A stretch of DNA of 64,000 nucleotides from Dehalococcoidia bacterium (GCA_034429715.1 DAOUFR010000011.1:1601-65600); one strand, 5' to 3'. Counted from the first letter of the stretch, positions 3,039-58,949 are shown. Notes: a model not told the origin generated them from the sequence alone. Made by a program: numbers and translations.

Positions 3039-3057
3039 GGTAACAATTGAATATGAA

Positions 3058-3335
3058 AAGGCTGTGAACGGGAATAGTAGGTCCTGCAGCAAAGGCCACA
3101 GAGAGTCAAGCAAGGTGAGAGTTGACGCCGGAGCAGGGATCGAATGGGCCCGGGAGCCGCAAACCGAAAGGGAAGTACCTGAGTAGGCTTTGACGCAGGG
3201 ATAGCGTAATCACAATCCAGGGTATCGCCGGCAACACGGCCGTACCTGACAGAGATGGTCCGGCAACGGACCAATAAGGGTGGCACCGCGAAGCTAAGCC
3301 TCTCGCCCCTTGGGTGAGAGGCTTTATTTATTGTA
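3058..3335 (+). ncRNA. T-box riboswitch, Trp specifier, with intrinsic terminator
   Basis: AGTA motif, apical AGAGA/GGTGAGA boxes, specifier GAA-TGG-G (TGG 3145-3147), stem III TGGTCCG-gcaa-CGGACCA, T-box AAGGGTGGCACCGCG (3276-3290), terminator AAGCCTCTC..GAGAGGCTT followed by a T-run. Confidence 0.92.
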
Positions 3336-3432: not shown

Positions 3433-4803
3433 ATGAAAGTGAAAAACGATACCAAGATTTTCTTAAAAGAAAAAGAGATGCCGACCAAGTGGTATAACAT
3501 TCAGGCCGATCTGCCCACGCCCCTGCCTCCCATACTGCACCCCGGGACGCACGAGCCGACCATTCTACCCCCGCCCCTCTTCCCTTCAACCCTGAACGAC
3601 CAGGAGTTCAGCAAAGAGCGCTTCATTGAGATACCCGACGAGGTACTGGACGTATATAAAATGTTCAGGCCTACACCGCTGATCAGGGCCCACCGCCTGG
3701 AAAAGGCGCTTGGCACCCCTGCCAAGATTTATTATAAATACGAAGGCGTGAGCCCGGCAGGCAGCCATAAGCTCAATACCGCCATCGCGCAGGCCTACTA
3801 CAACAAGAAGGCCGGCATCAAGCGTCTGGCTACCGAGACCGGCGCAGGGCAATGGGGAAGCGCCCTATCCCTGGCCTGCCAATATATGGGCCTTGAGTGC
3901 AAGGTCTACATGGTCAAGGTCAGCTATAATCAGAAGCCCTATCGCCGTATCATGATGGAGACCTGGGGAGCCACCGTTATACCCAGCCCCAGCACCGAGA
4001 CAAATTTCGGCAAGCAGATACTGGCTGAAGACCCCAACTGCCCCGGCAGCCTGGGAATCGCCATCAGCGAAGCCTGCGAAGATGCCTTCAGCCGCGATGA
4101 CACGTCATACTCACTCGGTAGCGTGCTCAACCATGTGATCCTGCACCAATCCATCATCGGCCTGGAGACACAGCTGCAGCTGGAAAAAGCCGATGCCGAG
4201 GCCGATATGGTTATCGCCTGTGTGGGCGGAGGCAGCAACTTCGGTGGCATGGCCGTCCCCTTCATCGCAGACAAGATTAAGAAAGGCAAGAAAACACAGA
4301 TCATCGCCGTCGAGCCCAGCGCCTGCCCCAGCATGACCAAGGGCCCTTACACCTGGGACCTGGGTGATGTAGCCGGCATGGCCCCCATTTGCAAGATGTT
4401 CACTCTCGGCCACACCTTCATACCCTCACCCATCCATGCAGGCGGCCTGCGCTACCACGGTATGTCACCGCTGGTTTCACACATGCAGAAACTCGGCCTC
4501 CTGGAAGCCAGGGCAGTCGATCAGAAGTCCACTTTTGAGAGCGCCATCCAGTTCGCCCGCACAGAGGGCATCATCCCGGCCCCCGAACCATCCCATGCCA
4601 TCAAAGTACTCATCGACGAGGCCCTCAAGTGCAAGAAGTCCGGCGAGAAGAAGACCATCGTGATGTGCCTTAGCGGACACGGCCATTTCGACCTGAGCGC
4701 CTACGAGCAGTTCCTCTCCGGTAAACTCGAAGCCGACGCTTATGACGAAGCCAAGGTAAAACAGGCACTGTCGCAGCTTCCCAAGGTCGATTTCAAGGGC
4801 TAA
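3433..4803 (+). CDS. trpB: Tryptophan synthase beta chain, TrpB2 type (PLP-dependent)
   Basis: [17 protein letters not shown] (PLP Lys), [28 protein letters not shown]; TAAGGAG RBS. Confidence 0.92.
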
Positions 4804-4817
4804 TAATTACATTACTA

Positions 4818-4871
4818 CAGGCCGGCATACGTGACTGATCAGTAAGAAATCAGTTCGCGTATGCCGGCCTG
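4818..4871. repeat. Long inverted repeat / hairpin downstream of trpB2
   Basis: CAGGCCGGCATACG (4818-4831) and CGTATGCCGGCCTG (4858-4871) are perfect 14-bp arms, with an inner ACTGAT/ATCAGT pair. Confidence 0.75.
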
Positions 4872-4955
4872 AAATAGCTATCCAGGCGTTTGGCCGGCCT
4901 GATACCTTTATGCTAAAATCCCAGCACTATTCCGATCAGATAGAGGTAACCGAAT

Positions 4956-6077
4956 ATGAGAATCCCCGCCGTAACGGCTTTTCTGCTTGCAGCCATACTG
5001 CTCTTCAGTGCCTGCCGCATCGAGTTCTCCACAACTCCCATATCGGCGCCGGCGCCTGCGATGGCGCCCGCCATCCAGCAAATAACTCCGGTCGATCCGG
5101 GCTGGAAATCGCCGGGGCCGGTGGAAAATACGGCGGCCCTCCCCAACATAGCAGACGTGGTTGAAAAGGGCTACCCCGGGGTGGTCACCATCACGACCGA
5201 ACAGATCGTCAACGATATGTTCAGCAGGGTCGTGCTGCAATCAGGCGCCGGTTCGGGCTGGATACTCGACAGCAGCGGCATCATCGTCACCAACAACCAC
5301 GTCGTGGAAGGCGCCCGCAAGGTCGTCGTCCAATTCTCGGACGGCCGGACCAGCGAGGTGACCGCCGACAGGGTTTTCCGCGATCCTCTGACCGACCTGG
5401 CCATCATCAAGGTCGACCTGAGCGACCTTCCAACCGTTGCTATCGGCGATTCCGGCAAGCTCAGGGTGGGCGACTGGGTGGTGGCCATAGGCAATCCACT
5501 GGGCAAGGGCATCAAGGCCAAGGAGGGCATAGTCAGCGGCCTCAAGGTCTCGCTCTCCCTGGACGAGGACGAATCGCTCTATGACCTGATCGAGACGTCG
5601 GCGGCCATCAACGAAGGCAACAGCGGCGGTCCTCTACTTAACATGAAGGGCGAGGTCATCGGTATCACCAGCGCCAAGATCGCCAAGATAGGCGTGGAGG
5701 GCATGGGCTACGCCATAAGCATCAATTCCTCTTTGCCCATCCTTCAGGAGCTGGTCAACAAAGGCTATATTACGCGGCCCTTCCTGGGTGTGGAGCTCTA
5801 CACTGTAAACGACTACGTCGCATACTACAACGGGCTGGCGGTCAAACGCGGAGCCATCATCACCACGGTGCAGCCCGGCAGCCCGGCGGCCAGGGCCGGT
5901 ATGCGCAGATTGGATGTAATCATCCGCTACCAGGGCAAGGAGATCACCACCGCGCCGGAGCTTCTGCGCGAATTGCGCAGCTCCAAAATAGGCGATGAGA
6001 TATCGGTTACCTATGTCCGTGGAAAGAATACTTACACTGTCACCGCACTGCTCACCGACAGTCCCCCTCCCCGATAG
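4956..6077 (+). CDS. htrA: HtrA/DegP-family serine protease with one PDZ domain, probable lipoprotein
   Basis: Catalytic triad motifs TNNHV, DLAII, GNSGGPL; C-terminal PDZ; lipobox-like FSAC. Confidence 0.9.
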   Translation: MRIPAVTAFLLAAILLFSACRIEFSTTPISAPAPAMAPAIQQITPVDPGWKSPGPVENTAALPNIADVVEKGYPGVVTITTEQIVNDMFSRVVLQSGAGSGWILDSSGIIVTNNHVVEGARKVVVQFSDGRTSEVTADRVFRDPLTDLAIIKVDLSDLPTVAIGDSGKLRVGDWVVAIGNPLGKGIKAKEGIVSGLKVSLSLDEDESLYDLIETSAAINEGNSGGPLLNMKGEVIGITSAKIAKIGVEGMGYAISINSSLPILQELVNKGYITRPFLGVELYTVNDYVAYYNGLAVKRGAIITTVQPGSPAARAGMRRLDVIIRYQGKEITTAPELLRELRSSKIGDEISVTYVRGKNTYTVTALLTDSPPPR

Positions 6078-9841: not shown

Positions 9842-10669
9842 CTATCCCTTCTTTTTGTCGCTGCCTTCCTTAAGTGCCTTGGAAGGCTGTTCCGCTGCTT
9901 TTTGAGTCGCGCTCTGAGGCTGAGTCTGAGCCTGAGGCTGCCTGAAGGACGGGAAGGTGAAATAACCCCAGCCGCCGGCCACGAAGTACTGGATGATTAT
10001 GCCGATGATGTTGGATACCACCCAGTAAAGGGCTAATCCACTGGGGAAAGACAGTGTGAAAAAGGCAAACATCAACGGCATCATCATAGTTGTCATGCTC
10101 GACATCTGCTGCTGGCGGGGATCGGTGGCGGGCGGCGTAACCATCTTCTGCTGCACCCACATAGTCAGGCCGACCAGTATGGCAAGGATCATGGTCGGGT
10201 CAGGCTGGGACAGCCTGAGCCCCAGGAAGTTCTCGTTGAGCGGTATGGCCTGGTCCACCATATCCCACGGATATAGATGCTGCGACAATATGAGAAGGTT
10301 CTCAGGCGTAGCCGCAAGGGCCTGCATGATAGATTGATAGAGCGCAATCCAGATAGGCATCTGTATCAGCAGAGGCCACATGCAGCCGAGAGGATTGATA
10401 CCGGCCTCCTTGTAGAGGCGCATCATCTCCTGCTGCAGTTTCTTCTGGTCGCGCGCATACTTTTTCTGGAGCTCCTGCATCTTGGGCTGCAGTTCCTGCA
10501 TGGCTTTAGTCGACTTTGTCTGCCTGAACGTGAGGGGCATGAGGACGATCCTGACCGCTATGGTCAGCACGATGATAGCCAGGCCGAAGTTGCTCCAGAG
10601 TATCTGGGAAAGCGCAATCAGACCGTTCAGTACCGGATCGAGTATAGCTACATTCCAAATATCAACCAT
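9842..10669 (-). CDS. yidC: Membrane protein insertase YidC
   Basis: LTIAVRIVLMPL, MQELQPKMQELQKKY, GINPLGCMWPLLIQMPI, GLALYWVVSN. Confidence 0.95.
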   Translation of the reverse strand: MVDIWNVAILDPVLNGLIALSQILWSNFGLAIIVLTIAVRIVLMPLTFRQTKSTKAMQELQPKMQELQKKYARDQKKLQQEMMRLYKEAGINPLGCMWPLLIQMPIWIALYQSIMQALAATPENLLILSQHLYPWDMVDQAIPLNENFLGLRLSQPDPTMILAILVGLTMWVQQKMVTPPATDPRQQQMSSMTTMMMPLMFAFFTLSFPSGLALYWVVSNIIGIIIQYFVAGGWGYFTFPSFRQPQAQTQPQSATQKAAEQPSKALKEGSDKKKG

Positions 10670-10678
10670 ATAACTAAC

Positions 10679-11857
10679 CTACTTTATCGCTGAAGAAAAA
10701 TCCCAGGTGATGGTATTCTTCACCGTATCAACTGCATAGACTTTGTGATCCCGGGCATATATATAAACCATGTCGCCCTCCGCGTAAGGATTCCCGTAGA
10801 CGGTATAGCCGACCGATATACTGCTGATCTTGGTCCCGTTGGTTATATCCAGCTTGTAAAGCGTCCCCTTTTCACTCACCGCGAATATGTGTTTATCGGT
10901 CACGGCAGGGGTCGACACCATCTGTCCGTCTCCCTCGAATTGCCAGATCTCTTTGCCGCCGACAGCCTCGATGGCATATATCTTTTTGTCCATGCAGGCT
11001 GCATAGATCGTGCTGTCGCGAATCACCGGCGTGGCCCAGAACCAGTTGCCGGCCTGGTATTTCCACTTCACCGTCCCATCGGCCTTATCAACGGCATACA
11101 GGTTCCGGTCGAAGGTGCCGAAATAAAGCAGCTGGTCTTTTACAGCGAGAGACGAGGCTACCGCCGAGGGGATCTTGATGCTCCATACCTCCCTGCCGGT
11201 TTCGGCCGATATGGCATACACGTTGCCGCCGTAGTTGCCGGAATAGATTATTCCATTGTCCAGAACGGGAGCCGTCCATATCTTGTCGGAGGTCTGGAAC
11301 TCCCAGATAAAATCGCCTGTAACGGCATCGAGCGCATAGATTTTACCGTTGGCGCTGCCGAAATACAGCGCCTTCCCATCGGTGATTACATTACCGACGA
11401 TCGCTCCTACCGTTTCGAAGCCTTCCCTCGGGTAAATCCAGCGGACCACTCCCCGATTGGCATTGAGGGCATAGATTTTACCGGTGTAGGTGCCCACTAA
11501 AACCAGGTCGCCGATTACCACAGGAGTGGCGTAGATGCCTTTGCCGGAGGCCGCCGATGACGGGGCGCACATGGCGCCGCAGGCGGATCCCGGCGTGGCG
11601 GTTTTAATGGCATATATCCACTCAGTCTCGGCGGGGAAGGTCTTTCCCTCGCTTCGCGCCTGCGGGCTGAGGGCAATGACCGATCCCTCCATAGACCCGA
11701 AGCAAATCAACTCGTTGTAGGGGGCAAAGCCGGACCAGCCCTGGGCCTGTGCTCCTGAACATCCCCCATCCATACCGGGCATACAACCTGAAACAAATAC
11801 CAGCAGGAGTATCCCCAGAAGAATAACAATCCTGACCAAATTTCTAACTTTTCTCAT
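10679..11857 (-). CDS. PQQ-like beta-propeller lipoprotein (BamB-like repeats)
   Basis: Signal peptide with lipobox VSGC; repeated YALDA.TG...W.F..W..P motifs. Confidence 0.85.
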   Translation of the reverse strand: MRKVRNLVRIVILLGILLLVFVSGCMPGMDGGCSGAQAQGWSGFAPYNELICFGSMEGSVIALSPQARSEGKTFPAETEWIYAIKTATPGSACGAMCAPSSAASGKGIYATPVVIGDLVLVGTYTGKIYALNANRGVVRWIYPREGFETVGAIVGNVITDGKALYFGSANGKIYALDAVTGDFIWEFQTSDKIWTAPVLDNGIIYSGNYGGNVYAISAETGREVWSIKIPSAVASSLAVKDQLLYFGTFDRNLYAVDKADGTVKWKYQAGNWFWATPVIRDSTIYAACMDKKIYAIEAVGGKEIWQFEGDGQMVSTPAVTDKHIFAVSEKGTLYKLDITNGTKISSISVGYTVYGNPYAEGDMVYIYARDHKVYAVDTVKNTITWDFSSAIK

Positions 11858-11899
11858 ATATTATCCTATTAAAGTTTCATTCAATCTAAAGCCGGCCTA

Positions 11900-12112
11900 T
11901 CATGGAACAGGATCGTAGCCGCGGGGCGTCCAGGGATTGCAGCGACAGATCCTGAGAAAAGTCATCCAACTTCCTTTAAAAATGCCGTATTTCTGTATTG
12001 CCTCGTATCCATATTGAGAACACGTCGGTGTAAAGCGGCAGGCCGAAGGCGTGACCTGCGAGATAGTGCCCTGGTACAACTTAATTGATTTTAGAGCTAC
12101 CGTTTTCAGCAT
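11900..12112 (-). CDS. yidD: Membrane protein insertion efficiency factor YidD
   Basis: CRFTPTCSQY..RICRCNPW..GYDPVP. Confidence 0.95.
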   Translation of the reverse strand: MLKTVALKSIKLYQGTISQVTPSACRFTPTCSQYGYEAIQKYGIFKGSWMTFLRICRCNPWTPRGYDPVP

Positions 12113-12443
12113 CTATTACCATCAAATCCAGGCGGTTAAGCAATTTTGTTATCGACCTGTTAATCTCATGATAATCAACGCCTGCCACAGGTCGCCGGGC
12201 GATCAACACCATATCCCACCCGGATTTTATTATCATCAGGCGAATATTCTCCTTTAGCAGCCTCCTGACACGGTTTCTGACAGTCGCCTTCCCGATATCC
12301 TTGGTTACAGAGAAGCCCACGCGTAAAGCATCCAGACGGTTGGGAAGAGCTTTTATTACCAGCAGTTTATCCGCTGCGGCTTTGCCAGATTTATATACTG
12401 CTAAATACTGCGATCTCCTGGTTAAAGCCAATCTCTTGGCCAT
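12081..12443 (-). CDS. rnpA: Ribonuclease P protein component
   Basis: RVGFSVTKDIGKATVRNRVRRLLKE (RNR motif). Start placed at ATG 12443, inside the longer track ORF. Confidence 0.93.
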   Translation of the reverse strand: MAKRLALTRRSQYLAVYKSGKAAADKLLVIKALPNRLDALRVGFSVTKDIGKATVRNRVRRLLKENIRLMIIKSGWDMVLIARRPVAGVDYHEINRSITKLLNRLDLMVIDAENGSSKIN

Positions 12444-12450
12444 CTCAACG

Positions 12451-12591
12451 CTATACCTGGGTGAGCTTCCAGCGCCCTCGGGCACGCCTGGCCTTTAATA
12501 CAGCTCGCCCACCCTTGGTGGACGCGCGTGCGCGAAAACCGTGCTTCCTGATTCTTCCTCTTTTTTTCGGTTGATATGTCCTCTTGGGCAA
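12451..12591 (-). CDS. rpmH: 50S ribosomal protein L34 (46 aa, below the ORF-track cut-off)
   Basis: Manual translation from TTG 12591: [46 protein letters not shown]. Confidence 0.95.
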
Positions 12592-12610
12592 TTCAATACT
12601 CCAAATTTGA

Positions 12611-12898
12611 TTAAGCTTTTTTCTCGGCTGCGCTCATGTTGTAGACATGGTTGGGCGACGAGGGCAGCATGGCCAGATAACGCGACCTTTTAATGGCCTG
12701 AGCCAGGCTGCGCTGGTGCCTGGCACACACACCGGTGCGCCTCCTCGGCACTATCTTGCCGCGGTCAGAAACAAAACGCTGCAGAAGAGACACATTCTTA
12801 TAGTCGATAGGCGCTTTGTCGGCACAAAACATGCACACCTTGGGTTTAACAATGAATTTGCGCCCCCTCTCCCTTCTTTGTACGGTATTGGTTTCCAT
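12611..12898 (-). CDS. rpsR: 30S ribosomal protein S18 (Zn-binding form)
   Basis: [37 protein letters not shown]. Start placed at ATG 12898 with AAGGAG upstream. Confidence 0.95.
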
Positions 12899-12933
12899 TG
12901 GTCTAAAAAACTCCTTCTCTAACAATTAAGGAT

Positions 12934-13338
12934 TTAGAAGGGGATATCCTCCGGCTCGATATCACCTTCGATTACACGGGCATCCTCGGGCGGCAGTTGC
13001 GCAGGCCCCTGTTTGTCCAGGAAGAGCACCTTATCTGCGGTCACATCCAGGCTGACCCGTTTCTGTCCGTCCTTGCCGTCATATAAGCGTGTACGCAAAT
13101 TTCCTTCCACGTAAACCAACTTACCTTTGTTTAAAAACTGGTTGCATGTCTCCGCCAGCTTTCTCCACGCGCTGATGCGAAACCATTCGGTCTCCTCTTT
13201 GAAGGACCCGTCGGGCTGGCGCATATTGCGATTGGCCGCCAGGCTGAAAGTGGTGACTGCTACACCGTCCGCAGTAAACCTCATCTCGGGATCACCCCCG
13301 ACCCGGCCAATCAGAATAATCTTGATTAAGCTCGCCAT
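12934..13338 (-). CDS. ssb: Single-stranded DNA-binding protein
   Basis: ILIGRVGGDPEMRFT, ETEWFRISAW, VYVEGNLRT; acidic tail EDIPF; lies between rpsF and rpsR. Confidence 0.96.
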   Translation of the reverse strand: MASLIKIILIGRVGGDPEMRFTADGVAVTTFSLAANRNMRQPDGSFKEETEWFRISAWRKLAETCNQFLNKGKLVYVEGNLRTRLYDGKDGQKRVSLDVTADKVLFLDKQGPAQLPPEDARVIEGDIEPEDIPF

Positions 13339-13354
13339 CAACCACCTCCGGAGA

Positions 13355-13642
13355 TCAGCTATTCTCGCGAACGAACAGGTACCTTAATACATCCTCGGAC
13401 ATCTTCAAACCGGCATCAAGTTCTTTTAAAGCCGTCTGTTTGATCTGCACTTTTTCGAGCACGTAATTGCCTTCAGTCTGCTTCTTAATCGGGTAAGCAA
13501 ACCTTCTTTTTCCCCATTGATTCGTCTCCGTAACCGTTCCACCGAGCTTGGTTATCTGGTCGTTGACCTTTCCCAATACCCGGGTGAAATCATCTTCACT
13601 CAAGTCCGCATTCAGAATAAAAACCAGTTCGTAACCGGGCAC
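13355..13642 (-). CDS. rpsF: 30S ribosomal protein S6
   Basis: YELVFIL, WGKRRFAYPIKK, EDVLRYL; GTG start with GGAGG RBS. Confidence 0.95.
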   Translation of the reverse strand: MPGYELVFILNADLSEDDFTRVLGKVNDQITKLGGTVTETNQWGKRRFAYPIKKQTEGNYVLEKVQIKQTALKELDAGLKMSEDVLRYLFVRENS

Positions 13643-13701: not shown

Positions 13702-13723
13702 AAGCTTGAGCAAGTTGCGAAAC
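13702..13723 (+). repeat. Left inverted repeat of the island
   Basis: AAGCTTGAGCAAGTTGCGAAAC; its reverse complement matches 16560-16581 at 20/22 positions. Confidence 0.8.
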
Positions 13724-13741
13724 TGCCCATCATCTGCTCGG

Positions 13742-13939
13742 TCATTTATCATCATTTTCCTGCAATATCCTTAGCACCAATTTAATGCGTTTGATTTTGT
13801 TTTCCAGACTGTTAATTTCAGCCATATCATTTTTCACCCTTTTGTGGGCGATATAGACATTCCGCTCCTCATTCCCCAGGGTCTTTATTAGGTTTAAAAT
13901 TACATTATTTTGCAAATTTCCATTAAATGTACTTGACAT
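13742..13939 (-). CDS. Small hypothetical protein (65 aa) with a coiled-coil-like C-terminal half
   Basis: Strong AGGAGG RBS 5 nt before ATG; heptad-like MAEINSLENKIKRIKLVLRIL; divergent from the 161-aa ORF. Confidence 0.6.
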   Translation of the reverse strand: MSSTFNGNLQNNVILNLIKTLGNEERNVYIAHKRVKNDMAEINSLENKIKRIKLVLRILQENDDK

Positions 13940-13949
13940 TGTCTCCTCC

Positions 13950-13977
13950 TAATGTTATTATGAATGTACTAACATTA
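13950..13977. promoter_or_regulatory. Palindromic operator-like site between divergent island ORFs
   Basis: TAATGTTA-N12-TAACATTA; the related AATGTACT..ACATT motif also occurs at 13926-13940 and 13963-13976. Confidence 0.5.
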
Positions 13978-13996
13978 AACTATGGGGGTCGCATAA

Positions 13997-14482
13997 ATGA
14001 TGAAAGTAAATGATGATATTCAGAAGGGGTTGAAGGATGAATTGATAATATTGGAAGACAAACTTTTTCAAATTCAACAAAGGCTTAAGAAAGACCAGGC
14101 TGAGTTTGGCATTGCGAGTCGCAAATATGCCGCGATGAGAGATATGCTTACAAAATATTTGGGGCACAGCCCATATGTGCCTGATGCTAATTTTGATGGG
14201 CTTGAGCCTGTGTCGGATAGGGAGGATTTTTATGGTGGCTTTAGATTCATCTATATGCCTGTTGGAAAAGCGGTAATAACAGCGCTTAAAGAAGCTGACA
14301 CACCACTTTCCCTCGAAGAAATTGTTAAATGGCTTCAGACGGGTGGAGTTGAGCGAGAAGAAAGTTCCCTTATTCGCGCAGTAAATGCAGCACTTATTAA
14401 GACAAAGGGAATACAAAAGTCCAAGGATGGGAAATACTCGTACATACCAAGTGATGTTGAGCCAGATGATGTACCATTTTAA
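13997..14482 (+). CDS. Hypothetical protein: N-terminal coiled coil, winged-helix (HARE-HTH-like) domain, SSB-like acidic tail
   Basis: VITALKEADTPLSLEEIVKWLQTGG..LIRAVNAAL..GKYSY fits a wHTH pattern; ends DVEPDDVPF. Confidence 0.6.
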   Translation: MMKVNDDIQKGLKDELIILEDKLFQIQQRLKKDQAEFGIASRKYAAMRDMLTKYLGHSPYVPDANFDGLEPVSDREDFYGGFRFIYMPVGKAVITALKEADTPLSLEEIVKWLQTGGVEREESSLIRAVNAALIKTKGIQKSKDGKYSYIPSDVEPDDVPF

Positions 14483-14486
14483 TAAT

Positions 14487-14518
14487 GAGGAGTGGCGCTG
14501 ACACGCCACTCCTCGTTT
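14487..14518 (+). terminator. GC-rich hairpin (terminator or processing signal) just upstream of the tRNA
   Basis: GAGGAGTGGCG-ctgaca-CGCCACTCCTC is a perfect 11-bp stem with only a short GTTT tail; it ends 13 nt before tRNA position 1. Confidence 0.7.
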
Positions 14519-14527
14519 GCTATTCGT

Positions 14528-14600
14528 GGGGGCGTAGCTTAGTCGGCAAAGCAGCGAACTTAAAATTCGCTGGATACGGGTTCGAGTCCCGTCGCCTCCA
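14528..14600 (+). tRNA. Atypical tRNA: anticodon TAA (Leu) on a class I body with alanine acceptor identity (G3.U70, A73); CCA not encoded
   Basis: Cloverleaf: GGGGGCG/CGCCTCC acceptor, GCTT-AGTCGGCA-AAGC D arm, GCGAA-CTTAAAA-TTCGC anticodon arm, 5-nt variable loop TGGAT, ACGGG-TTCGAGT-CCCGT T arm, A73, then CTA. Confidence 0.88.
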
Positions 14601-14665
14601 CTATTTAGCCTAGTATTCTGGGTACTAGCAGCTGTAACTGAACTAGCACCCATTGTCTCGGAGGG

Positions 14666-15685
14666 ATGAGCTCCTTGACTACTTATTATGATAACGAATG
14701 CTCTGGAAATGTCAACACTGTACCAGTGGTCAGACAGCTTCATGCTGTATTTAATTCTATCCCAGATGCCGAACTGTTGACCGCTCTGAAGTCTCCAACC
14801 GGAAGACCAGGATATACCGTCAACATTCTCTGGAAGACTTATGTCGCAATGACCGTCCTCAACCTGCCGACATTTGCTGACCTGATAAGAACATTGCATA
14901 ACAATCCGTTTATTGCAATTGCATGTGGGATAACAAGCGAAAAGGACATACCGAGTAAATTTGCGTATTCCCGCTTTATTCGCAAGTTGTCTCAACCTGA
15001 TATCGTACCGATGGTAAAGAATGTATCTCGAAACCTTACTCGGCAACTCTATGAGAAAATTCCAGGTTTTGGCAAAAGTGTGGCAATAGACAGTACAGAT
15101 TTGAAAGCATGGTCGAACGGGGCTAAAAAGCCCGTTTCTGATAAGGATGCAACATGGGCGGTAAAACCGGATACTGCTGGCAAGAAGAAATATTTCTTTG
15201 GTTATAAGCTTCATCTTATGGCTGACACACAATGCGAAATCCCGATAGTAGCGAATGTGACAACCGCCTCTATCGCTGATGTCCGTGTAGCTAGTAGGGT
15301 ATTGAGCCATGCACGATTCGCAAATGGGGCTTTTCATCCTGAATATGTGATTTGCGATGCTGGATATTGCAGTAAGAGCTTGAGGCGATCGATAAAAAGA
15401 CAGTACAGGGCTGAGCCAATAATTAAAGTGAATCCCACGCACAAGAAATCTTTGTTTGTTGAGACTAAGGAATGGCAGCAAATTTACGGTAGGCGTACTG
15501 CCATTGAGCGCATGTTTAGTCGACTCAAGTTGTATAGGCGACTTAACAATATTACTGTTCGTGGTATTCGTAAAGTAACTGTTCATTGTTTTCTTTCATT
15601 AATTGTTACTCAAGCTCAAGCCTTTTATGCTTCATCAAATAATCAATTGGCTTCTGCTAGACAATGTGTTTACTCATCAGTCTAA
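14666..15685 (+). CDS. DDE transposase (IS4/IS5/IS1182-like; DUF772-type N-terminus plus DDE_Tnp_1-type domain)
   Basis: GRPGY.., VAIDST (D1), FFGYKLHL, ICDAGY (D2), RTAIERMFSRLK (E); GGAGG RBS. Confidence 0.88.
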   Translation: MSSLTTYYDNECSGNVNTVPVVRQLHAVFNSIPDAELLTALKSPTGRPGYTVNILWKTYVAMTVLNLPTFADLIRTLHNNPFIAIACGITSEKDIPSKFAYSRFIRKLSQPDIVPMVKNVSRNLTRQLYEKIPGFGKSVAIDSTDLKAWSNGAKKPVSDKDATWAVKPDTAGKKKYFFGYKLHLMADTQCEIPIVANVTTASIADVRVASRVLSHARFANGAFHPEYVICDAGYCSKSLRRSIKRQYRAEPIIKVNPTHKKSLFVETKEWQQIYGRRTAIERMFSRLKLYRRLNNITVRGIRKVTVHCFLSLIVTQAQAFYASSNNQLASARQCVYSSV

Positions 15686-15762
15686 GAAACCATGTTTTGA
15701 TAGGTGTATAATATTCATACTCGATTCCTCTTATAAGATTGATGTTGTCGGGAAGGAAGCAT

Positions 15763-16500
15763 ATGCATTCTTTTGATGGGGTCAATCTCAAAATCGTCAG
15801 GGTAAAGGAACAGATCGAAGCTTTCCGCAGAGATATTGAGTTGTTTCATACCTCTAAGCCCAAACCATGTGAAATCATTCCACATGGCGATACTAAAGGT
15901 CTTAACTATAGTCTTACCTATTGCATCAATCGACACCCCCCGAAAGAATGGGGTGTTCTTGCGGGTGAGATTGCTTATAACCTCCGATCCGCTCTCGACC
16001 ATTTGGCTTGGCAATTGGCATTGCTCAAGACCAATAATCCTTCTAGAAGTACTGAGTTTCCCATTTTTTACGATCAAGCCATATTCAATGATCCAGGAAA
16101 AGGGGTTAAGAATAAATGGAAGGATATACCTCTCTATATCCGACCTACTATCGAAAAGTTTCAACCTTACAATAGAGGAAAGTGGCCGGAACTTGAACTT
16201 CTTTGGTGTCTCCATGAAATTAATCGTATTGACAAGCATAGGGAAATTATCCCGTGTTTTCTTCAACCAAGGATCGGTATCAAAGGTGAGCAATTTGGTA
16301 CTTTTCAACCTATGAAATTGAACGATGGCGATACAATAACAGTCCTCAAATCTGAAGGTACAGCAAAATTGAAGATTATGGCAGAGATAGCGTTCGATGT
16401 CCCTGATTTCAGTTATCTCTTTCCCGCAATGGGTTTCTTGGGCATATATAAATTTATCAGCGATGAAGTAATCCCACGTTTCAAAGTCTTTTTCAAATGA
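15763..16500 (+). CDS. Hypothetical protein, putative HEPN-like RNase
   Basis: GEIAYNLRSALDHLAWQL, TEFPIF and LHEINRIDKHR resemble HEPN-type helical nucleases. Start placed at ATG 15763 (AAGGA RBS). Family assigned from memory of motifs only. Confidence 0.5.
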   Translation: MHSFDGVNLKIVRVKEQIEAFRRDIELFHTSKPKPCEIIPHGDTKGLNYSLTYCINRHPPKEWGVLAGEIAYNLRSALDHLAWQLALLKTNNPSRSTEFPIFYDQAIFNDPGKGVKNKWKDIPLYIRPTIEKFQPYNRGKWPELELLWCLHEINRIDKHREIIPCFLQPRIGIKGEQFGTFQPMKLNDGDTITVLKSEGTAKLKIMAEIAFDVPDFSYLFPAMGFLGIYKFISDEVIPRFKVFFK

Positions 16501-16559
16501 ATTAGCTGTAACCATTGGTATAACGATTTACTCCATATCTAGATATTTATTTACACAGG

Positions 16560-16581
16560 GTTTCGCAACTGCCTCAAGCTT
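16560..16581 (-). repeat. Right inverted repeat of the island
   Basis: GTTTCGCAACTGCCTCAAGCTT, inverted partner of 13702-13723. Confidence 0.8.
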
Positions 16582-56090: not shown

Positions 56091-56307
56091 GGATCAAAAT
56101 ATTGGCTGATAGGCCCCGAGGTCGTTGGTTCAAATATTGCTTAAGAGATAGTAAATTATTAGTTCAATCATTCAATCGAAATCAGCATCAACTACTACAG
56201 TGCCTCATGACAGCAATGTAGCTTGGCAAGATGAGCTTACTATCAGGGAATTGTCATCAAATAATATCAACCTTTTTTACCGAATCGTGACCAAAGACAT
56301 TTAATAA

Positions 56308-57717
56308 TTAGATTGTATCCAAATTCTCTATCCCCTCTATTGGGCTGGCTGTGTCTTTATCTAGTATTTTTTGCGCAACTTTTTCTATTTTATCTTTGAA
56401 TTGATCTTTATTAATACCTGCGTCGTCTAGAATTGATAACATATGCTCTGCAACATTCTTTACTTGTTCCTCATTAGTAGCACCGAAAGCATCTCTGGGG
56501 GCTCTAGTTCCCAATGGCCATATATTATTCTGAATAAGGTGTGATATTTCTAATTCTGTAACTTTTTCTTTATGTATTTGGTGTTCCTCTATATCCTTAA
56601 AAATTGTGAGTGGTTGGCGTTCATATGGTTGTATATCATCATCCAAACCTAATAACACTCTGCAAAACGCTAAATGACCATAAAATATATTTTCCATTCG
56701 ATCATAATATGAAAGAGCATAAGCTAAATCTGCGCCGGAAAGAACCACCTTATAGCTATCTCCACTACGATATGCTGAAATGGCTGATACTATCTTCATA
56801 TCCCAGTCTTTTAGAGTACTTGAACTATCAAGGGAACGAAGCGATTGAACATCTTGAAATAGCTGTTTAAGTACTACGTGCAGTTTAGATTCTTGTAGAT
56901 TGCCTGAAGTACGATCGAAAGTTAGAAATATTCCTTGATGTAATGCAGCTTCGATGATCTTTGTACTTAATTCCTGTCCGCTTGTTCTACCTATAAGCGC
57001 CATACCCAACGGTAATACTAGATCATCCACCACTTCAATTTGTTTATAGATATCTTTGGCTGAAATATTCAGTTGTTTTCTCACTTTACTCATGTAATGA
57101 TGAGGTAGAAATACACTGGTACGTCTACGACTTACGAGATGTGTAAGATTCAATAATAATTCTGATAACAAAGAATATCTAATCTGTTTCTCCACTAGAT
57201 TTCTACCCAAGTTCATCCTATTGGATAAAGATTCCATCAATTCCTTAAAATCATTAAAACGAGTTAGCCAACTTGGTGCACCCTCTATATCTGGTTGTTG
57301 AATTTCTTCAATAAATGACTTTAAATGTTTTGGATCATCAATACCTGATGCTAATTGTTTCTTGCGTGTATTTTGAAGTAACATCTCCGTATCTCTTCGT
57401 AAATAGAAGAATAATCGTGGTCGCTGCGACGACATGAATGCATTTCTTGCCACTCTATATTCCTGTCGTGTTATCGAAACTCCTTCTTCAAATAGGCTCC
57501 CCCTTGTATTGCCTACTAGTAATATATAGTAGTCACAGTTATTGATATTCTCGAAGCATTCATCAAATGCTGTGCGGTCACCTTTAATATCAAAATCAGA
57601 GGCTTCTGATTGATACACAATAAATCCTTGCTCATTTAACGTAAAAGATATTGCTGATCTCAGATCACGAAATTCTTTGATAGTTGACGAGATAAATATA
57701 GAGGGTTGATTACTCAC
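56308..57717 (-). CDS. DUF4062 (TIR/nucleoside deoxyribosyltransferase-like) domain protein with an unknown C-terminal region
   Basis: IFISSTIKEFRDLR..CFENINNCDYYILLVG..GS..SITRQEY matches the DUF4062 signature; GTG start with GGAGG RBS. Confidence 0.82.
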   Translation of the reverse strand: MSNQPSIFISSTIKEFRDLRSAISFTLNEQGFIVYQSEASDFDIKGDRTAFDECFENINNCDYYILLVGNTRGSLFEEGVSITRQEYRVARNAFMSSQRPRLFFYLRRDTEMLLQNTRKKQLASGIDDPKHLKSFIEEIQQPDIEGAPSWLTRFNDFKELMESLSNRMNLGRNLVEKQIRYSLLSELLLNLTHLVSRRRTSVFLPHHYMSKVRKQLNISAKDIYKQIEVVDDLVLPLGMALIGRTSGQELSTKIIEAALHQGIFLTFDRTSGNLQESKLHVVLKQLFQDVQSLRSLDSSSTLKDWDMKIVSAISAYRSGDSYKVVLSGADLAYALSYYDRMENIFYGHLAFCRVLLGLDDDIQPYERQPLTIFKDIEEHQIHKEKVTELEISHLIQNNIWPLGTRAPRDAFGATNEEQVKNVAEHMLSILDDAGINKDQFKDKIEKVAQKILDKDTASPIEGIENLDTI

Positions 57718-57760
57718 AATTTAGTACCTCCCAAATCTCTCTCAAATATTTTAACGACGT

Positions 57761-58777
57761 CTACGGGTTACTTTCTCTGAAGTATTTCTCAATATCCATA
57801 TTCCAAACGTAAAATGCTAATACAATTGATACCCAGTCAATTGTTGGAATATCAAAATCTGTTTGGAATATTTTCACTCGTTTGCCTATTTTACCCATGT
57901 TACGAACATGTGTTGTATAACGTTGTTCAATCTCTTGAATAGAATATATTCTTATTGCACCATCGCAGTGTATGAATCGAGGATTGTCTGGTACATAAAT
58001 GCCATGAAAATAGCGGCTTCCTCTTATACTTACTAGTTCTTTTTTAGGTAACTCTTCACAGATAAAATGTATTTCGTTATCTCTCGGAGCCCAAACTAAA
58101 TCTGTAAATTCAACATCAGGCTGAAAGCCATGATTTGGAAGCCATTTCATATGACGATCTTCTTTTAGACTACTAATATCCTGCCAATCAAGTTCCTTAC
58201 CATAAACCCACATCTTATATTCCGTGGGCCTATAGGTTGATGCCTCTTGCACCATTAATGGATCTAATCTGATTCTTATTTCTCCCTGTTTGGCAAGGCG
58301 AAACAGAATATGCGATAACCAATATACTGAATTTATTGAGTAGGCAATTGAAGGAAGAATCTGAAATACTGTGGAACCTCTTTTTAAATAACGCAAAGAG
58401 GTATCAAATTCACTCAATCTAACCAAGCAATTATTATCCAGTTCTATCCCATTCAGATTGGGATGGTCGTATGGCTTAATTTGAGGTGAATTTTTGCTGG
58501 TTTTCAGTAGCGAAATCCTTTTAGTAGCAATAGCTCTATCGATGAAATGACCTATTACCCAATTCACATCAATGTCGCCGTGCAAGTTTGCCAATTCTTT
58601 ATACCAGGAAGGTTGATATTGCCGATCTAGAGTATTAATTTGCGTTAAACGCTTCGACAACTCGCGAAGCATCCTGCCTACTTTAGAATTCTGTTTAATG
58701 TTTTCTGCTATCAGAAATACACTTGAGGTATCGGATGTACTAAAGTAATCAACTATTTCACTTGGAATCTCTATCAT
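57761..58777 (-). CDS. Hypothetical protein (338 aa) with a conserved-looking polar C-terminal motif cluster
   Basis: Long ORF in AT-rich DNA, co-oriented with the DUF4062 gene 43 nt downstream; SRYFHGIY..HCDGAIRIY..HVR..GK motif. Confidence 0.7.
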   Translation of the reverse strand: MIEIPSEIVDYFSTSDTSSVFLIAENIKQNSKVGRMLRELSKRLTQINTLDRQYQPSWYKELANLHGDIDVNWVIGHFIDRAIATKRISLLKTSKNSPQIKPYDHPNLNGIELDNNCLVRLSEFDTSLRYLKRGSTVFQILPSIAYSINSVYWLSHILFRLAKQGEIRIRLDPLMVQEASTYRPTEYKMWVYGKELDWQDISSLKEDRHMKWLPNHGFQPDVEFTDLVWAPRDNEIHFICEELPKKELVSIRGSRYFHGIYVPDNPRFIHCDGAIRIYSIQEIEQRYTTHVRNMGKIGKRVKIFQTDFDIPTIDWVSIVLAFYVWNMDIEKYFRESNP

Positions 58778-58949
58778 AGCCTAATACTAATTATTAAATA
58801 TCCTACTTTAAAAACAGTCAACATTTTGGTGTCAAAGCACCTTTTCTTATCCGCATATGCAGTACTATAGTATATGTGGGGGCCGAAGTTAGCCGTATAT
58901 GACGAATTTTTATCCACACTTCACAACTTCTCAAGGGCTGTTTATCCTT

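Follow-up and report, generated by a model that had tools for sequence, protein, structure and literature searches.

The window analysed in the current work, a stretch of 64,000 nucleotides of Dehalococcoidia DNA, contains a tRNA gene in which the leucine anticodon UAA is placed on a class I body with the acceptor determinants of tRNA-Ala, raising the question of which amino acid such a tRNA would insert and what the gene does at this location. Few natural tRNAs are known to uncouple the anticodon from the amino acid, and the known bacterial examples are mostly misshapen or tied to a special synthetase; the window tRNA is fully canonical in shape and would rely on the housekeeping alanyl-tRNA synthetase (AlaRS). 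A preliminary description had predicted the insertion of alanine at UUA. Its observation is confirmed as real and its interpretation is partly supported, but it had overlooked that the tRNA is the passenger of a transposon, residing in a slot which in related copies holds other mismatched tRNAs. This context shifts the question from an odd host tRNA to what such transposons do with tRNAs.

A leucine anticodon on an alanine acceptor stem

The sole tRNA gene detected by ARAGORN in the 64-kb window (14528-14601, plus strand) is labelled tRNA-Leu(taa), the label which the preliminary description had foreseen and a warning that automatic annotation counts such genes as tRNA-Leu. With the Rfam tRNA model it scores 73.2 bits (E 4e-14; gathering score 29), and none of its pairs is flagged as non-standard. 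The layout is the canonical 7/5 arrangement, with a 7-bp acceptor stem, a 5-bp T stem and a short variable loop. Within the acceptor stem (GGGGGCG/CGCCUCC), six Watson-Crick pairs are accompanied by a single wobble, G3.U70, formed by the G at 14530 and the T at 14597. The D stem (GCUU/AAGC) encloses the loop AGUCGGCA, which contains A14, G15 and G18G19 and is without 20a, U48 being present; the anticodon stem (GCGAA/UUCGC) carries the 7-nt loop CUUAAAA (U33, UAA, A37, A38), and is followed by the 5-nt variable loop UGGAU and by a T stem (ACGGG/CCCGU) with the loop UUCGAGU. Full pairing of all stems apart from G3.U70, a class I body with a 5-nt variable loop and a complete alanine acceptor set (G1-C72, G2-C71, G3.U70, G4-C69 and A73), all claimed in the preliminary description, are borne out by this direct reading, and so is the lack of an encoded CCA, since A73 (14600) is followed by a CUA trailer (14601-14603). 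A strong hairpin upstream had been raised as a caveat; it is present, at a distance of 10 nt (from its end at 14517 to G1) rather than 13 nt, and proves to belong to the upstream transposon gene, as its conserved, terminator-like hairpin.

Compared with tRNA-Leu, the window tRNA has the leucine anticodon and A73; it lacks the long variable arm of class II as well as the combination of A15-U48 and A20a (G15 is present with U48, and 20a is absent). Compared with tRNA-Ala, it has G3.U70, A73, G2-C71 and G4-C69 and carries UAA in place of an NGC anticodon, so that only acceptor determinants are held in common: there is no G20, and the D and anticodon arms differ. A BLAST comparison with E. coli genomes retrieved no canonical isotype, the only match being a plasmid 'tRNA-Arg' at 78%. 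A tmRNA-like or other Rfam family was considered and rejected, as it yielded only sub-threshold noise.

A transposon with a tRNA slot

A transposon of 2,868 bp (13708-16575), bounded by 18-bp inverted repeats and by the 6-bp target duplication AAGCTT, encloses the tRNA gene (Table 1). This transposon forms an island of 43% G+C in surroundings of approximately 55% G+C, and is inserted between rpsF and ychF: on its left, yidC, rnpA, ssb and small ORFs (those near ssb being rpsR and rpsF, as read by position) occupy the minus strand (9842-13642), and on its right ychF and a pyruvate phosphate dikinase-like gene follow on the plus strand from 16650. Named homologues of YchF belong to Dehalococcoidia or Chloroflexota, as do the named ones among the 394 homologues of the transposase. 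Elsewhere in the window, a T-box leader (104 bits; 3055-3313) is found ahead of an ORF at 3433-4803, and a second A+T-rich island (56300-58800; 36% G+C), which is probably foreign DNA, contains ORFs with a GC3 of 0.26-0.30 and TTA at 20 of 469 codons.

Table 1 Features of the tRNA-bearing transposon (window positions)
Feature	Position	Strand	Remarks
Left target-site duplication AAGCTT	13702-13707		Identical hexamer immediately outside each inverted repeat
Left terminal inverted repeat GAGCAAGTTGCGAAACTG	13708-13725	+	Matches family consensus GAGCTTGTTGCGAAACTC
Small ORF, 65 aa	13742-13939	-	Same position as small minus-strand ORF of relatives
161-aa ORF, first plus-strand transposon gene	13997-14482	+	Homologous to 167-aa ORF of L040
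G+C-rich terminator-like hairpin, then U-rich tract	14484-14517	+	14-bp arms, -25.1 kcal/mol, z -6.2
tRNA gene	14528-14600	+	Class I, anticodon UAA, G3.U70, A73; ARAGORN, Rfam, direct reading
Second conserved hairpin GGGUACUAG...CUAGCACCC	14620-14651	+	In spacer before transposase gene
Shine-Dalgarno GGAGG and transposase start region	14660-14677	+	ATG 14666 or TTG 14675
DDE transposase, 336 aa, IS5/IS1182-like	14675-15685	+	DDE_Tnp_1 2e-23, DUF772
Cargo ORF, 253 aa	15739-16500	+	89% nucleotide identity with L044
Right terminal inverted repeat GAGGCAGTTGCGAAACCC (read on minus strand)	16558-16575	-
Right target-site duplication AAGCTT	16576-16581

The 18-bp ends are also found at both extremities of six relatives (L040, L047, L048, L050, L056 and L057), whose 6-bp duplications are GTATTT, GTATTT, AACCTA, TGTATC, TATATT and AAATTA; the same ends and duplications of the same length in the window and in these relatives identify the island as a transposon. 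Insertion sites differ across the seven copies, most relatives being located between different housekeeping genes. Two other origins of the arrangement were rejected. Creation of the tRNA as a hybrid by integration at a tRNA gene does not fit a tRNA well inside the ends and duplications that are A+T-rich hexamers unrelated to it, while insertion of an IS beside a host tRNA does not fit upstream genes and a hairpin that travel with the transposase, the whole unit lying within one duplication.

The order of elements (minus-strand ORF, 161-aa ORF, hairpin, tRNA, spacer, transposase, cargo) was compared with the DNA around transposase homologues at 61-90% protein identity, and is the same in all surveyed relatives except the most distant one (L062, 61%). 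No Pfam match was obtained for the 65-aa ORF, the counterparts of which match HTH_17 in L045, L048, L049, L056 and L057; nucleotide homology between the window and L040 begins at 13763. An exact look-up of the 161-aa ORF returned nothing; in other copies its position is taken by HTH_17 proteins instead, and the stop codon of the ORF at this position abuts the hairpin in every copy. This terminator-like hairpin is present in all copies, whether or not they hold a tRNA. Depending on the copy, its loop (window 14498-14503; also L013, L040 and L050) reads CTGACA or the reverse complement TGTCAG, as if it had been inverted between perfect arms.

Between the tRNA and the transposase gene there is a spacer of 74 nt, comprising the second hairpin and a stem that sequesters the Shine-Dalgarno sequence. 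The second hairpin, thermodynamically unexceptional by itself, occurs in every copy holding a tRNA, including L060, in which the tRNA is located 440 nt farther upstream, and is absent from the tRNA-less L044 and L049. In the predicted fold, GGAG of the Shine-Dalgarno sequence can pair with CUCC (14671-14674) just before the TTG codon, and such pairing is also possible in L013, L040 and L047 despite changes between the arms. Translation of the transposase more likely starts at TTG 14675 than at ATG 14666, considering that the homologues are 336 aa long and start at that position. The best promoter candidate upstream of the tRNA (9/12; 14457-14486) is located at the end of the upstream ORF, and none is convincing. 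An antisense promoter-like site on the minus strand (14715-14688; TTGACA, 16 nt, TATCAT; 11/12) points across the transposase start, the spacer and the tRNA, and could be the source of a transposase antisense regulator.

Against IS-family models the transposase attains 122 bits for IS1182 (cut-off 270) and 79 for IS5 (cut-off 140), and it remains below every NCBIfam IS-family cut-off. In common with the tIS of the IS5/IS1182 group, the window element has a DDE_Tnp_1 domain in its transposase, terminal inverted repeats and a target duplication that are both short, and passenger genes between its ends; it differs from IS5/IS1182 proper in that its transposase falls under the family cut-offs. Translation of the cargo ORF probably begins at residue 9. 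Its product falls into an uncharacterised family of great size (7,852 representative clusters) with the conserved motifs NLRSALDHLAWQL, EFPIF, LQPYHR and DKHR, and its RSALDH stretch fits the Rx4H pattern. Searches of Pfam, PADLOC and PDB with this ORF gave no match and hhalign gave no link to DUF4145, while a single-sequence AlphaFold model was uninformative (pLDDT 32).

The slot is a fixed position between the terminator hairpin and the transposase gene, and it holds different tRNAs in different relatives. A UAA/G3.U70 tRNA as in the window is present in L013. The slot of L040 and L047 is occupied by a 71-nt tRNA with a body most like tRNA-Glu and the anticodon loop CCUUGAA (C33, UUG), and that of L050-54 by the same type of body with the loop CCUUAAA (C33, UUA). 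Class II tRNAs of 83-86 nt with the anticodons GUA, GCC and GUC are found in L056 (2850-2935), L048 (2842-2927) and L057 (2842-2927); their D arm (GGAAUUGGUAGAC) and T arm align with those of E. coli tRNA-Leu, not tRNA-Tyr, and they have A73. L060 holds a 72-nt tRNA with GUU and C33, whereas in L064 the slot is cut by the contig end, the remaining ...CCCGUCCCCUCCA again having U70. In two copies (L044-46 and L049) both the tRNA and the second hairpin are absent. Nearly all acceptor stems start with GGGGGC, A73 is present in all, and most slot tRNAs place an anticodon on a body of other specificity. Of five related slot tRNAs compared with Rfam, those of L013, L047, L048 and L050 exceed the tRNA threshold with 51-70 bits, while that of L040 gave no Rfam match at E <= 0.1; the T loop is CUCGA in L040 and L047. 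A separate observation on the class II slot tRNAs is that CAGGCC, running from the last part of the D stem into the anticodon stem, can fold with GGCCUG of the variable arm as one long hairpin, which ViennaRNA favours over the cloverleaf in L048, L056 and L057.

The cargo varies among relatives, and the type of tRNA does not correlate with the type of cargo. L040 carries a DUF4145 ORF with a PADLOC match to PD-T7-4 (1e-8), and L047 a 298-aa ORF matching PDC-S45 (2.5e-18), further types of ORF occurring in other copies; in L056, an IS3-type element (HTH_Tnp_1 and rve; 4112-5154) is inserted between transposase and cargo gene. A search of viral contigs for further copies gave no match to the spacer-hairpin pattern and four solitary matches to the inverted-repeat pattern, these being without tRNA or transposase. 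Literature searches turned up no description of an IS-like transposon with a tRNA slot.

Selection on the tRNA and recurrence of its features

The window and L013 align over 14481-15385 (79%), which allows the divergence of the tRNA to be set against that of its surroundings. At four-fold degenerate sites of the transposase gene, 51 of 95 positions (54%) are different, as compared with 6 of 73 (8.2%) in the tRNA, 11.6% in the hairpin and leader, and 10.8% in the spacer. Two of the six tRNA changes compensate each other, turning pair 31:39 from A-U into U-A; the remaining ones are in the D and variable loops, and the anticodon loop is identical at 7/7 positions. The slow divergence and the compensatory pair argue, in agreement with the preliminary description, that the gene is not a decayed pseudogene. 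In an alignment of six G3.U70/UAA tRNAs, for which the search pattern had fixed part of the acceptor stem, 96.8% of cells in the cloverleaf were paired and 12 of the 21 pairs showed double changes; none of the shuffles and slid registers came near this pairing. The anticodon stems of the Leu-like slot tRNAs covary (CCAGA/UCUGG, CCCGA/UCGGG and CCGAG/CUCGG), and their loops differ at positions 35 and 36 only. From these comparisons the window tRNA is judged to be kept intact by selection, the gene to be functional in some sense, and the anticodon arm to matter.

The recurrence of the combination was assessed with a pattern that required G1-G4, C69-U70-C71-C72-A73, a short variable loop and YTTAAR in the anticodon loop. 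It matched at three places in 185,579 species (one genome each), two of which are real tRNAs; in IMG/VR it matched two odd phage tRNAs, and in metagenomes 34 stretches, mostly of unrelated families. The UAA/G3.U70 combination is thus rare. U70 recurs in L013, L003 and the contig-end-cut L064, and its presence in these three independent relatives argues against a local sequencing error. In L003 (MAG SJ655, JADZBC010000009.1), placed in Saccharibacteria by its RadA names, the tRNA (207-279) has UAA, U70, A73 and 34 nt of acceptor and T arms that are the same as in the window, whereas its D and anticodon stems are unlike those of the window tRNA. This gene is chromosomal, is equipped with a near-consensus promoter and a terminator-like hairpin, and is located upstream of a NusA-like ORF with no transposase; the genome uses TTA often, at conserved leucines (Clp and RadA motifs). 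L005 (Parcubacteria MAG PKTI01000036.1; 295-469) contains tandem class I tRNAs with leucine anticodons, the first having UAA, G3.U70, A73 and CCA and the second being an odd CAA tRNA with C at position 37; an A+T-rich promoter-like stretch is present upstream of this pair. Recurrence across phyla argues that the features are selected as a combination. Other metagenome tRNAs of this kind (L006, L012, L020, L024-26, L028 and L035) were set aside: long ORFs are almost absent from their contigs, which probably come from eukaryotic nuclear genomes and contain repeats of tRNA origin.

That the gene is a pseudogene in decay, that its cloverleaf arose by chance or that U70 is a sequencing error, as the lack of an encoded CCA, the mobile island and the unusual features might suggest, is hardly credible in light of these data: such a reading is refuted by the 73-bit Rfam score, by a tRNA that diverges six times more slowly than neutral sites and includes a compensatory pair, and by U70 in four independent sequences.

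Charging, decoding and competing explanations

AlaRS needs no more than G3:U70 to accept a tRNA, and mistranslation in vivo results from tRNA-Ala bodies that carry foreign anticodons, leucine ones included (PMC7609411; PMC10543346); likewise, allo-tRNAs with G3:U70 insert alanine in E. coli (PMC5389517). Given this sufficiency and the behaviour of such bodies, the predicted charging of the window tRNA by AlaRS is well grounded, and the most likely predicted product is Ala-tRNA(UAA), causing leucine-to-alanine missense at a codon which is rare in the host (TTA, about 5-6 per 1000 codons). Neither LeuRS nor AlaRS takes account of the anticodon, and E. coli LeuRS needs A73 together with D-loop features (A15-U48, A20a) and not the long arm (PMC9976931). 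As A73 is common to tRNA-Leu, the class I body alone does not exclude leucylation, and partial leucylation is possible.

Reassignment of UUA to alanine was rejected because TTA and TTG occur at invariant leucine columns: in YchF, TTA282 corresponds to leucine in 120/120 homologues and TTA344 in 107/120; in the transposase, TTA309 corresponds to leucine in 106/120; TTG is likewise placed at conserved leucine positions in both proteins, and the genes of L003 are alike. Alanine insertion at such positions would therefore be mistranslation rather than a change of code. The transposon genes contain two TTA in 819 codons, and 26 TTG at conserved leucine positions. Self-protection by TTA avoidance was nevertheless rejected, since the fraction of leucine codons written as TTA is low in the tRNA-less L044 (1/57) as well as in the window (2/71) and L013 (0/26), and thus does not discriminate.

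The main explanation, to which we give about even credence, is that an IS-like Dehalococcoidia transposon of 2.9 kb carries the gene as a functional tRNA passenger, which would be charged with alanine and act as a mobile missense suppressor. Transcription would either continue through the hairpin or begin at a weak promoter located where the upstream ORF ends; RNase P and RNase Z would excise the tRNA, and the CCA-adding enzyme would supply its CCA. Host AlaRS would then charge it through G3.U70, A73, G2-C71 and G4-C69, and the product would read UUA, and perhaps UUG, in competition with genuine tRNA-Leu. Candidate gains for the transposon as such a suppressor may be stress or addiction of the host, damage to A+T-rich invaders, or control of its own genes. 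Several observations speak against this explanation: no promoter is convincing (9/12 at best) and a strong hairpin stands just upstream; the copies without tRNA (L044 and L049) indicate that it is dispensable for transposition; poor decoding features occur in relatives, namely C33 (L040, L047, L050 and L060) and the CUCGA T loop (L040 and L047); the Glu-like bodies are not those of an anticodon-blind synthetase; and the 26 TTG codons at conserved leucines of the transposon itself would be hit if U34 also reads G.

In another reading, which we consider possible though rather doubtful, the tRNA shape acts in cis: its RNase P and RNase Z sites would part the transposase mRNA from the upstream transcript, or the shape would tune the transposase in some other way, with charging and decoding irrelevant and G3.U70 incidental. 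The location between a terminator hairpin and the transposase ribosome-binding site, beside the second hairpin and the sequestering stem, is consistent with it, as are the flanking non-coding DNA, which is as conserved as the tRNA (11-12% different), the wide variation of anticodons among copies, several of which have C33 or an odd T loop, and the existence of tRNA-less copies; the antisense promoter-like site (11/12) suggests that the transposase is controlled at more than one level. RNase P and RNase Z, however, need only the acceptor/T minihelix and not the anticodon arm, whereas here the anticodon stem is kept by compensation and the whole loop is retained at 54% neutral divergence. Moreover, loop changes within each body type are confined to positions 35-36, the Saccharibacteria homologue has its own promoter and terminator without any transposase, and the transposase persists in tRNA-less copies. 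Were the slot tRNAs uncharged, they would provide a clear case of a tRNA shape reused as a cis element for transposase control.

Acceptance of leucine, making the gene a class I tRNA-Leu(UAA) comparable to animal mitochondrial tRNA-Leu(UUR) that decodes a rare codon for an A+T-rich element in a G+C-rich host, or one of dual Leu/Ala identity, is unlikely. A73, A14 and G18G19 are present, the element has 43% G+C in a host of 55% with TTA rare in host genes, and the Saccharibacteria homologue is strongly promoted in a genome with frequent TTA at conserved leucines. To our knowledge, G3.U70 recruits AlaRS in every bacterial system tested, and the transposon, with its two TTA codons, has little need of such a decoder. 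E. coli LeuRS requires neither the long arm nor the anticodon, yet it does require A15-U48 and A20a (PMC9976931), in place of which the window tRNA has G15 with U48 and no 20a. A role in defence or counter-defence, as a decoy or spare for anticodon nucleases tied to defence-type cargo, is more improbable still: the PADLOC families matched by cargo of L040 (PD-T7-4) and L047 (PDC-S45) and the fast variation of anticodons would agree with it, but tRNA and cargo types are uncorrelated, the window cargo has no defence match, and a spare should retain a matching identity, which slot tRNAs do not.

Extending the mobile missense suppressor to the whole slot family, we tentatively suggest that these Dehalococcoidia transposons may carry swappable, deliberately mismatched tRNAs as mobile missense or nonsense suppressors charged by anticodon-blind synthetases; the mismatches would comprise a leucine anticodon joined to an alanine acceptor, Tyr, Asp and Gly anticodons on leucine bodies, and ochre and Gln anticodons on Glu-like bodies. 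If this is true, mistranslation would be a transferable trait, by which the host might be manipulated or addicted, or foreign genes that differ in codon use might be damaged. If the slot tRNAs are active, it would spread horizontally as a cassette, and transposons would gain a passenger of an undescribed kind.

Mismatched tRNAs as such are already known, and what is new here is a natural identity-mismatched tRNA of canonical shape in a new mobile context. The tRNA-Leu(UUR) of animal mitochondria is likewise of class I with UAA and A73; it lacks the G3.U70 of the window tRNA and is charged by an adapted mitochondrial LeuRS. Nematode nev-tRNAs, reportedly described by Hamashima et al. in 2012, are said to combine a leucine class II body with Gly or Ile anticodons; they mirror the Leu-like bodies with non-leucine anticodons of L048, L056 and L057, but are eukaryotic, chromosomal and not mobile. 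In Pachysolen, nuclear CUG is read as alanine by a G3:U70 tRNA, a full codon reassignment. The mitochondrial tRNA-Ala(UAG) of Ashbya gossypii also has G3:U70 and reads leucine-box codons as alanine (PMC7609411); both cases are genome-wide reassignments, whereas the code of the window is standard and its tRNA would compete with tRNA-Leu. Human tRNA-Ala anticodon variants, both engineered and natural, for which mistranslation was measured, combine an alanine body with a foreign anticodon (PMC10543346, PMC12084884), yet they are point mutants of tRNA-Ala genes, while the window tRNA has the acceptor determinants only, conserved across phyla.

Among bacteria, the allo-tRNAs of Acidobacteria and other bacteria (Mukai et al. 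2017, PMC5389517) are comparable as a natural mismatch between anticodon and charging: their anticodons include UAA and other leucine ones, some have G3:U70, and they are found near toxin-antitoxin genes and transposon-related ORFs, the window tRNA being linked to a mobile element too. In allo-tRNAs, however, the acceptor and T stems are arranged 8/4 or 9/3 and the variable arm is long, in contrast to the 7/5 class I window tRNA, which furthermore is a defined internal module of an end-mapped transposon in a Dehalococcoidia host. The tRNA-ProX/ProRSx system of Streptomyces and relatives likewise provides a genome-encoded bacterial tRNA for missense decoding, in this case with a dedicated second synthetase that leads to proline at Ala, Thr or Asn codons (PMC11415595); the window tRNA would use housekeeping AlaRS, and there is no extra synthetase in the element.

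A further set of metagenome contigs, A+T-rich and phage-like (L007, L009, L015, L022, L029-L032, L034, L036, L038 and L039; e.g. L038 6392-8556), contains two to three tRNA copies approximately 1.1 kb apart with the anticodon UUA (reading the stop codon UAA), G3.U70, A73 and an encoded CCA. ARAGORN, run on three of these contigs (L009, L022 and L030), places a tRNA(CUA) labelled Pyl beside them in each case (3/3), and from their sequence these UUA tRNAs look like alanine-inserting ochre suppressors of a recoded phage.
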